Positions 47,472 to 53,083 of a stretch of DNA of 64,000 nucleotides are shown here, in pieces; within the stretch, counting starts at the first letter, position 1, and each line of letters starts with the position of its first letter. A program made the position numbers and the translations under genes. Origin of the DNA: an uncultured archaeon. Its GTDB lineage: Archaea; Aenigmatarchaeota; Aenigmatarchaeia; CG10238-14. The notes under the pieces were generated by a model. That model did not search any database and was not told the DNA's origin. It saw only the letters and a program-made list of their open reading frames with translations. The DNA lies in assembly GCA_964392445.1 (NCBI GenBank), contig CAYMPD010000002.1, forward strand, positions 37,037 through 101,036. Direction: 5' to 3'.

Positions 47472-47486
47472 ACGCCGAGGTAGGGA
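47472..47486 (-). repeat. 15-bp duplication of the tRNA-Ser 3' end (att-like)
   Basis: acgccgaggtaggga identical to 52924-52938. Confidence 0.85.
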
Positions 47487-47629
47487 GAAACTACAGTTGT
47501 TCAAATCCTAATTCTCAAAAATTTATTGGATTTCTGGGTATTTATTAATTATATATCAAATAATGATATATTGATATAAATAGAAAATCTTCTTGTTGAG
47601 AGAAGACTTTCTATTGAGGGACGAATATG

Positions 47630-48772
47630 CTATTCGCCCCTCTTGATCTCGGTAACGACCCCGAGTCGATTGACTCGGGCCGAGAAGATCTGACCGACCC
47701 TGAAGTGGGACCATTCGCCGTAATCACAGGAATACTTCCGAGTTTTCTCCTTCCTATTGACGAAGACGACACTGTAGTTCTCCGATCTCCCGGATTCCCG
47801 TTCATTTCCAGCGAGGGTGACTCCTGGCCAGTACGCTTCGTGGTCATCTCCAGAAGCCCTCTCTGTCCTGTCATGAACCCACCTATCCACTTGGTAGGTG
47901 TATTTGGTCTTATAGACCGGTTCATCACAGTACTTGGTCACCGTCCTGTATTTCGTTTCACAGCGGGTCTCATAGACTGGGCGCCTGCATTCTATGTCCT
48001 CGAAGTAACCATTTCCCAGGTCTCTTTGACCACAGACGTAGGTCTCTGTCCCCACTTGAACTTGTTCGCAGTCTTGGTAGGACTCCTGCTCTGTCCCACA
48101 AGCGACCTGATCGTAGTGGTGGATTTCCCTGCTCTGTGAGACGATACGAGCGTCCCCGGGAAGTTCGCCCTCCCATCCGGTACGGGTGACTGTGCGGAAG
48201 GATTCGATGCTGACGGATCGTTTCCAGTTGAATCCTGCCACCTTCAGGGTCTCGTCGTGGGGGACGAGGATGAAGACCAAGAGAAGGATCATACCAACGA
48301 TACCTGCAGCGATTGCGATGCTTTGCCATGGGATAGAAAGTCCCGTCTCTCTGATACTTCGGGGGAAGTCTAGTTCCCCCAGTGAAGGGCTACCCGTCAT
48401 CGTCTTCCCAGATGTAGGGTGAGATTGGGAGCGAGTTCTCTTCTCCCGTGCCTCTTCACCGCTTCTGGGGACTTCATCGAGGTCGTAGTCCCTTACTTCG
48501 CGGCTGGGTGATGTTCCCCTCTCAGCACCACATTGCATGCATTTACTATGAGTTGCCCGGTTGGACGTCCCACAGAAGTTACATATCCAGTCCGGTCCAG
48601 CCTTCGCTTCGGCGATCTTCTCTGGGATTCGAACTTCGGGTTCCCCTTCAGGTAGGTAAAAATCCACTTCTGCTCCACGGGGGCGTCCGCATCCAGGACA
48701 CTTCATCACGCTACCTCGGATACCCGTTGTCCCGCAATACTTACAGTCCCAACGTCCTTCTCGGATAGCCAT
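47630..48772 (-). CDS. Double Zn-ribbon (RanBP2-like) membrane protein
   Basis: WDCKYCG..CPGCG and WICNFCGTSN...CMQCGA, one TM, Cys-containing beta-rich C-terminal domain; AGAAAGGAG SD. Confidence 0.85.
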   Translation of the reverse strand: MAIREGRWDCKYCGTTGIRGSVMKCPGCGRPRGAEVDFYLPEGEPEVRIPEKIAEAKAGPDWICNFCGTSNRATHSKCMQCGAERGTSPSREVRDYDLDEVPRSGEEAREKRTRSQSHPTSGKTMTGSPSLGELDFPRSIRETGLSIPWQSIAIAAGIVGMILLLVFILVPHDETLKVAGFNWKRSVSIESFRTVTRTGWEGELPGDARIVSQSREIHHYDQVACGTEQESYQDCEQVQVGTETYVCGQRDLGNGYFEDIECRRPVYETRCETKYRTVTKYCDEPVYKTKYTYQVDRWVHDRTERASGDDHEAYWPGVTLAGNERESGRSENYSVVFVNRKEKTRKYSCDYGEWSHFRVGQIFSARVNRLGVVTEIKRGE

Positions 48773-48856
48773 TGTTTTGCTCCTTTCTAGGAAGGTTTAT
48801 CAAGAGAGGAGGGAAAATCAGTCGGAAGATATCCCCTCCTCTATTCTGATCGTCAT

Positions 48857-50785: not shown

Positions 50786-51478
50786 AGAAATAGTATCTCA
50801 AGACAACCAAGATAATCAATCGATCCAATCCACACTAAAGGTATCTCCTACATGGAGACTGCCCAAAGTGGGCGGAAAGACCTTTTCTCGTTATCTGAGA
50901 GATTAGTCTTATTTACTTGTATTGTGAAAGCAACGCAAGACAATCTCAGACTTACATTACTATTACATTAGAATTATAGTAAAATTTAAATACTTAATGG
51001 TAGTGACAACTAATAACTAGTTTCAACCTTCATGATTTTCCATAAATTAGGAATTATTAATTTCTTCTCTATGTTCCATTATATTTTCTTTCAATTCTTT
51101 TGGTTCTAAATAAATACCATATTGGGGTAATACTTTGTCGCAAATAGTTTTAACCTTGTAGTCGAAATCAGGGCTATCAATCTGTTTGAAAAGGTTTTTA
51201 TTGTTTCCCTGAATTTAGTTTTCCCTATTTTTGTGTTTTCTTTTATAAGAACATCCGAAGCTATGGGAATAGATGTATTTGAAATAGGTTTTGACAAAAA
51301 TCATGCACATATAAATATTTTAGAAAGGGGATTGCGATCCGTAGCTGAAATTACAAAAAAATCAAGAAGTTATAATTTTTGATGGAATTTCGGCAGGGAA
51401 TTTTAGCTGTAAAAACAAAGTTTTAAATCCTTTTCGAACATTCCTTATTTTAAAGAGTGGAGATATGTGTTTAGTGTA

Positions 51479-52831
51479 ATGTACCCTAAGGTAACTAGTA
51501 AAAGGAAGGATTTCGAAGGTACTGAAAGATCACAGGTAGTTTATAAAAAAAGAAAATTGGTTTCAGGACAAAGAATTTTAAACGGAATTTTAACCGCTGT
51601 GATGGTTGGTACCTTACTTATTGGTTGTGGTTCTCCAAGAGAAACGGTAAATATACCGAGTACTCCAACCCCATCCGTTTCAGTTACTCCTAAAGAAGAT
51701 TTTAATGTAACTCCTTACCCACGTGTGAATTTATTTGATGATGTTTATTCTCAAGAAACTTTAAGTTATGAGCCCCCTAAAGGCGTAGGAATTGATCAAA
51801 CATTATTAAATATATTTGATAGAATGAATTTGGGGGTTAATGAAAGAGGTGCTACTTTCGATCAAATTAGACATTCCAATACAATTACAAGGGTTGTTGC
51901 TGACAATGGAAACACTTATGATGGAGAAGTTATTAATATACCCTTATCTGGGGGAAGGGGTTCTTTCAATATTTACAGAGTATATAATCCTAATGGTGAT
52001 GATATTTGGTTATATCCCGATCTTCGAGTAGGTGGTCCAGGGGCAACTGTTACTTTGACTCCAACACCCATCCCACCCACTTCCACACCTCAACCTACTG
52101 AAGTTCCACCCACTAACACACCCCCACCAACAACTATTCCACCCACTTCCACACCTCAACCTACTGAAGTTCCACCCACTAACACACCCCCACCAACAAC
52201 TATTCCACCCACTTCCACACCTCAACCTACTGAAGTTCCACCCACTATTAACACCTCAAATGTTCATGTTGCAATAGAAAATTTAAGAGAAAGGGGAATT
52301 AATATGCGATTATATGTAGTCTCTTCAAGTTCAGAGGACGTTTTCAAGGTTATATATGATGACTTGAGAAGGAGAAATTTTATCGCTACCACGGGTCCAG
52401 ATGAAGGGATTGATACTAGAGGTGTGTCAGGTTGTCCCTATTGTATATTTGTTCCGGACTACAGTGTAAATAGTAGATCAGTGGCATCTTGGGAAAGAAT
52501 AATTCAACACGAAGCATGGCACTCTTTACAAGTTGCTAATAATCCAGATTTAGCCTACCATTTTAGAGGAGAGAGTGAAGGATTAAATACCAGATTTGGT
52601 GTATATGCTAGATTTCAGGAATGTTGTGCTGAAGTTTTCGGTTGTCAGGTCGCTGCTGGATTCTACCATCCCGACAATTTAAGATTATTAATGAATCGGA
52701 TGCCAGAACAAGAAGATTTAATATTAGCTGCCTGTAGTGGAAATAGAGATGCCTATTTTAGATTAAAGGATTTGTATAATGATGCTCAAGGGGACAACGC
52801 TTTTCAAAATCTATTCCCCCCCTATAATTAA
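51479..52831 (+). CDS. Lipoprotein with Pro/Thr repeats and HExxH zinc-metallopeptidase-like C-terminal domain
   Basis: Lipobox LIG|C, PT-rich linker, IIQHEAWH...E motif; start uncertain. Confidence 0.8.
   Translation: MYPKVTSKRKDFEGTERSQVVYKKRKLVSGQRILNGILTAVMVGTLLIGCGSPRETVNIPSTPTPSVSVTPKEDFNVTPYPRVNLFDDVYSQETLSYEPPKGVGIDQTLLNIFDRMNLGVNERGATFDQIRHSNTITRVVADNGNTYDGEVINIPLSGGRGSFNIYRVYNPNGDDIWLYPDLRVGGPGATVTLTPTPIPPTSTPQPTEVPPTNTPPPTTIPPTSTPQPTEVPPTNTPPPTTIPPTSTPQPTEVPPTINTSNVHVAIENLRERGINMRLYVVSSSSEDVFKVIYDDLRRRNFIATTGPDEGIDTRGVSGCPYCIFVPDYSVNSRSVASWERIIQHEAWHSLQVANNPDLAYHFRGESEGLNTRFGVYARFQECCAEVFGCQVAAGFYHPDNLRLLMNRMPEQEDLILAACSGNRDAYFRLKDLYNDAQGDNAFQNLFPPYN
52073..52247 (+). repeat. 66-bp perfect tandem repeat, about 2.6 copies
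   Basis: Unit encodes PPTSTPQPTEVPPTNTPPPTTI. Confidence 0.93.
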
Positions 52832-52924
52832 ATAGATAATATTGTAAACTTTTTTCAGACTAAAATTGTTCAGAAGCTAGAATTAAGCATACTTTTTAGG
52901 CAATGTTCAATACTTAAGTTCTAA

Positions 52925-53083
52925 CGCCGAGGTAGGGATTTGAACCCTAACGTTCCGAAGAACACTGGATTTCCTTCGGTTCACCTCCTTGTCCATCATC
53001 CTAATGTCAGGGTCAAGCCATCTTCCACATCGAAAGCGAACAGCCTCAAGTCCAGCGCATTTGCCAGATTCTGCCACCTCGGC
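52925..53083 (-). tRNA. tRNA-Ser(TGA) with 74-nt intron (52971-53044) at position 37/38
   Basis: GCCGAGG/CCTCGGC acceptor, G73, CTGGA-CT TGA G|intron|A-TCCAG, long variable arm, GGGTTCAAATCCC; relaxed bulge-helix-bulge. Confidence 0.9.

Follow-up and report, generated by a model that had tools for sequence, protein, structure and literature searches.

In a 64,000-nt stretch of DNA from an uncultured archaeon of the Aenigmatarchaeota (hereafter the window; G000:C2:37037-101036), the gene for tRNA-Ser(UGA) is accompanied by a second copy of its own 3' end, and the question that this locus raises is how the 5,437 bp between the two copies (47487-52923, hereafter the islet) came to lie there. The genome (G000) is a draft of 1,215,121 bp in 54 contigs, 94.9% complete and with a GC content of 34.5%. 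The 3' parts of tRNA genes are sites at which tyrosine integrases insert integrative elements and genomic islands, and such elements at tRNA 3' ends were reportedly treated by Reiter et al. in 1989 and by Williams in 2002. A preliminary description of the locus had read it as the footprint of an insertion of this kind. As set out below, the islet, a sister islet at another serine tRNA gene and the same locus in related genomes indicate that the DNA was very probably inserted precisely by a sequence-specific enzyme that targets serine tRNA genes at their 3' ends, whatever the class of that enzyme.

The two repeats are exact copies of the 15-mer ACGCCGAGGTAGGGA, both on the plus strand, at 47472-47486 (the distal repeat) and 52924-52938 (the proximal repeat). 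Identity extends to 17 of 18 nt when 47469-47486 is compared with 52921-52938, and no third copy was found in the whole 1.2-Mb genome at up to one mismatch. The target gene is intact and lies on the minus strand (52925-53083; Rfam RF00005, 42.9 bits; ARAGORN Ser(tga), i(38,74), with a 74-nt intron). The proximal repeat is the reverse complement of the tRNA end and comprises its final 14 nt plus 1 nt, and the distal repeat, which has the same orientation, follows 5.4 kb 3' of the gene. Both the intron-containing tRNA-Ser and the repeat of its end had been claimed in the preliminary description and proved real, except that it had counted all 15 nt of the repeat as tRNA. On the element side of the distal repeat there is also a weak tRNA-like extension of ~40 nt, broken by 13 nt, the anchored score of which was matched or exceeded in 0.4% of genomic controls. 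No more degenerate copies of the repeat (tandem islets) were detected in 36-53 kb at up to four mismatches. When we surveyed all 48 tRNA genes for repeats of at least 12 nt of their ends within 40 kb, acceptor 3'-end repeats were found at only two of them, tRNA-Ser(UGA) and tRNA-Ser(GCU), the latter on contig C3; the remaining matches were T-loop resemblances among different tRNAs.

The repeat at tRNA-Ser(GCU) bounds a sister islet (G000:C3:44673-48796), which is likewise devoid of a recombinase. Its two repeat copies, TCCCACCCTCAGCGT and TTCCACCCTCAGCGT, are in the same 15-nt register and agree at 14 of 15 positions. Moreover, the two islets have in common the motif that directly follows the tRNA-proximal repeat, which reads TAGAACTTAAGTAT here (52910-52923, minus strand) and TAGAGTTTAAGTAT in the sister. 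Exact TAGAnnTTAAGTAT occurs at these two islet ends only in 2.43 million positions, while shuffled-motif controls gave a mean of 1.0 match anywhere. Each end of the sister islet carries the motif, inverted relative to the other end and directly beside the repeat, and the resulting ~19-nt terminal inverted repeats, which start with TAGA, had a score of 11 that was reached by none of 3000 random 20-mers. The proximal end of the islet studied here matches both sister ends (0.2% and 0.07%, respectively, of random genomic 20-mers score as high). The cargo of the sister is unrelated and consists of genes for a sugar C-methyltransferase and a receiver-domain protein. The host flank beside its distal repeat (L177 780-871 in G000:C3; L193 in G001:C98) is highly conserved between G000 and G001 and appears structured (GTCAAGGCAGCGTCTTAACCAACTGGACCATCGGCCC); it possibly belongs to a further RNA gene. 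In the alignment with contig C98 of G001, a congener, the flank is followed by one copy of the repeat and then by the tRNA, which constitutes a clean empty site for the sister islet, and the sister insertion was therefore precise. Taken together, these sequence matches suggest that the two islets belong to a single family, which is characterised by a defined end and of which neither member encodes a recombinase.

The tRNA-Ser(UGA) locus itself could be followed across the family, where orthologs of the gene are 78-91% identical. In the congeners G003 and G004 the tRNA 3' end is identical, with neither the repeat nor the cargo beside it. The order there is Cbf5, tRNA-Ser, homologs of 37649-38029 (G004 only) and of 38097-38537, MetRS and, in G004, NurA, and the conserved host genes begin 0.1-2.4 kb past the tRNA. 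In genus g4, both sides of tRNA-Ser are syntenic in four genomes, and therefore no insertion has occurred at the gene there. The block that holds these neighbours (37649-41893; a 126-aa open reading frame (ORF), a 146-aa ORF, MetRS and NurA) lies inverted in G000, 11 kb from the tRNA, whereas in G003 and G004 it lies directly 3' of tRNA-Ser in the opposite orientation. One breakpoint of this inversion is near the distal side of the islet.

These comparisons bear on the explanation that no mobile element was involved at all, i.e., that the repeat is a chance match in a native variable region, or that the GC-rich block inside the islet (described below) is an assembly chimera. It would suit this explanation that the genome is a metagenome-assembled draft in 54 contigs, that the GC-rich block is sharply bounded and has bacterial sequences as its best protein relatives, and that the flank past the distal repeat is likewise genome-specific. 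However, only 0.02 chance matches to the 15-mer are expected per window at up to two mismatches, the 15-mer being a GC-rich word amid a genome of 34.5% GC, and its position and direct orientation 3' of the tRNA are paralleled by the sister repeat. A chimera, in turn, would need two false joins, neither of them at a shared repeat. In the congeners, this tRNA is likewise accompanied by the host genes that border the locus on either side, and the contig backbone is therefore sound; moreover, a tRNA-Trp gene within the block has archaeal-type identity elements. We thus regard a chance repeat or a chimera as extremely unlikely.

The same tRNA end is occupied by an integrase-bearing element in another congener, G002, contig C3 of which ends within the orthologous tRNA-Ser (98% identity, with the same 15-mer). 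This contig is syntenic with G000:C1 as far as a tRNA-Arg gene and then continues for ~11 kb without homologs in G000. Starting 63 nt from the tRNA end is a tyrosine-integrase gene with a SAM-like N-domain, the catalytic domain of which is cut short (at position 126 of a 172-position profile); directly adjoining it is another integrase gene, which is Xer-like. The truncated protein and a 397-aa integrase encoded on G000:C7 are 29% identical (E 3e-33). A 12-nt copy of the repeat, ACGCCGAGGTAG (13 of 15 positions), recurs directly 10.1 kb from the tRNA copy. In the modelled circular junction of this element, the attP core is flanked, at a distance of 8-10 nt from the repeat, by a perfect 12-bp inverted repeat (GGGAGTATAAAC and its complement), a length that was reached in 0 of 200 shuffles. 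The repeat of the G002 element and that of our islet have a common outer limit, 1 nt beyond the tRNA; the arms of the two differ. In the genus, tyrosine-integrase elements therefore use the tRNA-Ser 3' end as a working attachment site. The cargo of the G002 element (G002:C3:20342-30503) includes genes for a PfkB kinase, TruD, a NUDIX protein, an amino-acid kinase and a DHODH-like Fe-S protein. Elsewhere in the family, a tyrosine-integrase pseudogene with one in-frame TGA lies ~0.6 kb 3' of tRNA-Pro(CGG) (G007:C4:22973-23350) and is another remnant of integration at a tRNA end.

We favour a tyrosine integrase as the enzyme that inserted the islet because one occupies this very site in G002, with the same outer limit of the repeat. 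According to this explanation, 47487-52923 would be the remnant of an integrated mobile element that was site-specifically recombined into the 3' end of tRNA-Ser(UGA). The incoming element would have supplied the final 14 nt of the tRNA anew, pushing the old copy 5.4 kb downstream; as for its integrase, either a helper element would have provided it in trans or the gene would have been deleted. The islet would then functionally resemble a cis-mobilizable element (CIME), retaining its att sites and lacking the genes for integration. These comparisons point to a family of non-autonomous or decayed elements. The repeat, the common end, the absence from relatives, the precise insertion of the sister and the integrase at this site in a congener were observed directly, whereas the class of the enzyme, mobilisation in trans as opposed to decay, and any role of the cargo are matters of inference. 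With the tyrosine integrase included, this reading as a whole seems to us evenly balanced between right and wrong. What stands of the footprint claimed in the preliminary description is site-specific insertion, borne out by the bare tRNA ends of the congeners, the G002 integrase, the sister islet and the empty site in G001; the tyrosine integrase is the putative enzyme only, a casposase-like transposase also being compatible with a 15-bp duplication that has abutting inverted repeats.

An insertion could also have come about with no integrase whatsoever, through host recombination or repair that left a duplicated gene end behind. In line with this, no recombinase is encoded in cis, and a PIN-type cassette that has no counterpart at the relatives' loci (53129-53907) lies on the other side of the same tRNA. 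Yet the duplication measures merely 15 nt, where such a process should leave a long one (tens of bp or more), and in a congener the site is occupied by an integrase gene. Above all, two independent islets have in common a 14-nt end motif that is unique in the genome, as well as the register of the repeat, and therefore point to a sequence-specific enzyme rather than to illegitimate or homology-driven joining. An integrase-free origin is accordingly quite improbable.

If an enzyme was responsible, its gene is not at hand. The preliminary description had noted the lack of any recombinase, replication or capsid gene between the repeats, and this held up: no such family was recognised there with Pfam, PHROGs, PADLOC or NCBIfam, and tblastn of the locus with four tyrosine recombinases returned nothing better than E 0.1. 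A split SSV-type integrase across the repeats was considered and rejected, as there are no such ORFs. In IMG/VR, the 15-mer had 34 matches and the repeat plus end motif 11, all in unrelated contexts. Among 370 genomes of the phylum, the junction motif had six one-mismatch matches, as compared to eight for the reversed control, none of them near a tRNA.

Several of our results weigh against a tyrosine-integrase remnant. No integrase gene or remnant was found in 41.8-53.2 kb (PF00589, tblastn), and the two tyrosine recombinases of G000 lie elsewhere; the search proposed in the preliminary description, for one next to the same 15-mer, found none in the genome. Neither IMG/VR nor the 370 genomes of the phylum yielded an attP-like junction or a parent element, and the attP modelled for this islet contains only a chance-level 7-bp inverted repeat. 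The distal end of the islet scores at chance level against the end motif, and no significant inverted copy of the motif is recognisable at 47487-47629. Moreover, the distal flank is genome-specific and adjoins the inversion, and therefore no base-precise empty site can be reconstructed for this islet; as for the empty site that the preliminary description had proposed to look for in relatives, G003 and G004 have a bare tRNA end, and a precise empty site is present only for the sister, in G001. Two like-ended elements, the repeats of which each match their own target, are also explained more simply by target-site duplication than by two diverged attP cores. Finally, an exact 15-bp repeat with abutting inverted repeats is the pattern of casposons (PMC5137440).

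Casposons are Cas1-dependent transposons found at tRNA 3' ends in Aciduliprofundum boonei and Methanosarcina mazei; they generate 14-15-bp duplications there and require the adjacent T-loop segment (PMC5137440, PMC4779613), the duplication of the A. boonei casposon being 15 bp (PMC5137440). By analogy, the two islets could be casposon-type transposons that are non-autonomous (or could belong to another cut-and-paste type with a 15-bp staggered cut), with the repeat as a target-site duplication beside the T-loop region, TAGA...TTAAGTATAAC as the terminal inverted repeat and a Cas1-like casposase acting in trans. The repeats support this, being 15 nt long and in the same register in both islets (15/15 here, 14/15 in the sister), as do the ends, which abut the repeat directly and in the sister form terminal inverted repeats on both sides. 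As target duplication predicts, the sequence of the repeat follows the target and that of the end is conserved.

Casposons are, furthermore, present in the archaeon's relatives. A bona fide one in the same class (G242:C3; L204 3208-13165) encodes a solo Cas1 of 396 aa and has terminal inverted repeats of at least 13 nt that start with GGGATATAGATAT; as in A. boonei, its 15-bp duplication, ATAAATTTATTGGGG, overlaps the 3' end of a tRNA, here tRNA-Pro, by 5 nt. An 859-aa protein encoded next to this Cas1 had no Pfam match. In the same order, solo Cas1 genes of about 395-402 aa occur in G125, G138, G080 and G075 (L201, L202, L203, L205) with no CRISPR array nearby, and two of them are near tRNA genes; the ends and duplications of these four loci were not found in the surrounding DNA examined. 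In all, Cas1 (PF01867) is present in 55 of 371 phylum genomes.

Against a casposon-type origin, no Cas1 homolog (PF01867) was matched in G000, a 94.9%-complete genome, and neither Cas1 nor PolB is present in the islet or elsewhere in the genome. The islet ends are unlike those of the G242 casposon, the duplication overlaps the tRNA by 14 nt rather than 5, and our islet has one recognisable end only, lacking a second inverted repeat. The outer limit of the repeat, as mentioned, is that of the integrase-bearing G002 element, which also has inverted repeats, 8-10 nt from its repeat; inverted repeats thus do not discriminate between the two enzymes. In the casposon literature that we surveyed, natural non-autonomous casposons were not found described. 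On balance, we consider the casposon-type explanation unlikely, albeit a serious contender, and it is with the same reserve that we would see in the islets natural non-autonomous elements with inverted-repeat ends and a 15-bp duplication, moved by a casposase-like or other enzyme encoded elsewhere.

We then turn to what the islet, which we still prefer to read as the remnant of a tyrosine-integrase element, contains. GC content rises from ~0.30 to 0.53 at ~47600, close to the distal repeat as had been reported, and drops again at ~50900. The 3.75 kb affected are the largest stretch above 45% GC in the genome, the three others measuring 1.5-2 kb. The GC-rich cargo block proper spans 3.3 kb at 52% GC and holds three membrane-protein genes and two tRNAs. 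GC at third codon positions is 0.54-0.67 for the three genes (P0001-P0003), as opposed to 0.21-0.25 for the fourth gene of the islet (P0004) and every flanking gene. The mosaic of a high-GC and an AT-rich part described previously is therefore real, and its recent part is limited to the 3.3-kb block, which alone is compositionally recent; the remainder of the cargo is an AT-rich backbone with an orphan lipoprotein gene. We take the block to have been acquired recently.

Next to the distal repeat, an AT-rich islet end (47487-47629) includes the terminator-like hairpin of P0001. The P0001 gene (47630-48772, minus strand) encodes a protein of 380 aa that combines a pair of RanBP-type zinc ribbons with a single membrane helix and a C-terminal domain; very long beta-hairpins make up the latter in a confident structural model (pLDDT 84.5). 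The protein family is widespread among bacteria; of 898 homologs, the closest is 50% identical, and the best 80 genomic loci are all bacterial (the candidate phyla Woesebacteria and Roizmanbacteria, as well as Chloroflexota, Cyanobacteria and Acidobacteriota). Within the archaeon's phylum the family was found in one of 371 genomes, namely G000. Comparison of the model to solved structures gave no significant match; beta-pore-forming toxin pores reached only a TM score of ~0.1, an insignificant likeness, and no function was assigned.

The second gene, P0002 (48857-49843, minus strand), encodes a membrane-anchored protein of 328 aa that is weakly SPFH/Band 7-like and has a handful of known homologs (two clusters, three sequences). 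The third, P0003 (49948-50520, minus strand), encodes a Cys-rich orphan of 190 aa (167 aa if translated from Met24) with a C-terminal membrane helix. All three GC-rich genes thus encode membrane proteins. They do not represent a conserved three-gene bacterial module, since P0002 and P0003 adjoin no P0001 homolog in the 80 bacterial loci or in the lone metagenome locus with a P0002 homolog. A phage origin was likewise dismissed: DNA matches to phages are confined to tRNA sequence, PHROGs yielded merely "lipoprotein" for P0002, the viral relatives of P0001 are more distant (at most 33% identity) than the bacterial ones, and no viral relative of P0002 was found. Nor is there a defence system, PADLOC giving no match between the repeats, or an rRNA behind the high GC content, as Rfam returned no rRNA match and the block consists of three ORFs and two tRNAs instead.

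The tRNA genes of the block are an extra tRNA-Trp(CCA) (50634-50709, minus strand; no intron, G1:C72, A73, three stem mismatches) and an extra tRNA(CAU) (50713-50786, minus strand; elongator-type acceptor stem, no intron, CCA encoded). They duplicate host functions: G000 has its own, intron-bearing tRNA-Trp and tRNA-Met genes elsewhere, and those of the islet are therefore spare copies. The identity set of tRNA-Trp is G1:C72 and A73 in archaea and eukaryotes and A1:U72 and G73 in bacteria (PMC1538984). With the archaeal/eukaryal set in its tRNA-Trp, the GC-rich block is therefore not simply bacterial or phage-style, and the immediate donor was more likely an archaeon or archaeal mobile element of higher GC content that already carried a gene of bacterial ancestry. 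A comparison of the tRNA pair with five genomes that contain P0001 homologs did not point to a donor.

The AT-rich backbone carries P0004 (51467-52831, plus strand), an orphan of 454 aa and host-like composition that has a lipobox signal, tandem repeats of 33 nt encoding Pro/Thr-rich sequence and a C-terminal domain with weak similarity to HExxH peptidases; no homologs were found, including in 22 genomes of the family. The Pro/Thr-rich stalk of the protein corresponds to five to six tandem 33-nt units at 52061-52258, and these account for a local rise in GC content and a strong negative GC skew within the otherwise AT-rich gene.

Genome-specific DNA at this locus is not confined to the islet. 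Past the distal repeat lies a further 5.6 kb of it (41894-47471) with a 958-aa ORF, an Lrp/AsnC regulator and four small ORFs, and the variable region exceeds the islet. The 958-aa ORF (42297-45173) has no homolog among the 22 family genomes; pieces of it are 33-61% identical to parts of very large ORFs on G000:C14 and C17, and it looks like a member of a family of large, fast-evolving proteins. On the other side, between tRNA-Ser and Cbf5, the cassette mentioned above comprises a PIN-domain gene (53476-53907, minus strand) and a 94-aa partner ORF (53129-53413). It looks like a VapBC-like cassette that was inserted 5' of the same tRNA-Ser; no duplication was found to flank it.

How, then, does the islet compare to known systems? 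In archaeal gene capture, reportedly described by She et al. in 2001, an SSV-type integrase gene is said to be split by integration, its halves remaining in the chromosome. The islet would resemble such captured DNA as an integrated element at an archaeal tRNA gene that has lost the ability to excise and become fixed cargo, and differs from the SSV type in that no integrase halves flank it. With tRNA-targeting genomic islands, such as PYG1 of Pyrococcus yayanosii with its 44-bp repeat (PMC9897764), it has in common a tRNA gene that is intact at one boundary and partially repeated, in its 3' part, at the opposite one, absence from relatives, foreign cargo and an integrase-bearing element at the same tRNA end in a congener; unlike PYG1-type islands, it has no integrase, a repeat of 15 nt rather than 44 bp, a size of 5.4 kb and a conserved end motif that abuts the repeat.

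CIMEs of Streptococcus and other bacteria have lost the genes for integration and transfer and retained attL and attR (PMC5704250). Similarly, both boundary repeats of the islet are retained, the genes for integration and transfer are absent, the site is common to integrase-bearing elements in a relative, and additional genome-specific DNA follows in tandem past the distal repeat; of its att sites, the proximal motif is conserved with the sister and the distal arm is degenerate. Unlike CIMEs, however, the islet has an archaeal host, its descent from a larger element is only putative, no resident helper with the same site was found, and there are two members with common ends and wholly different cargo. 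This last combination looks more like a non-autonomous family than like independent decay.

The islet is, then, a known kind of genomic islet in a little-studied lineage. New are the two islets as one family with a defined end, the integrase at the same site in a congener, the archaeal-type spare tRNA-Trp and the casposon-like alternative. The common end motif offers a defined DNA substrate with which the enzyme responsible for moving the islets can be sought, and could also decide whether casposon-like machinery has natural non-autonomous passengers. If mobilisation by a casposase-like or other enzyme encoded elsewhere holds true, the islets would constitute a family of "mini-casposons" or satellites in DPANN archaea that swaps its cargo, importing genes of a bacterial family together with archaeal-type spare tRNAs. 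Little is known of how DPANN archaea, with their tiny genomes and their dependence on host cells, acquire genes; the present locus illustrates one concrete route, by which the islet brought in two spare tRNAs and the gene for a membrane protein, P0001, of an otherwise bacterial family. Within the genus, the 3' ends of serine tRNA genes serve as landing pads that hold an integrase-bearing element in one species and enzyme-less islets in another, and are empty in others.

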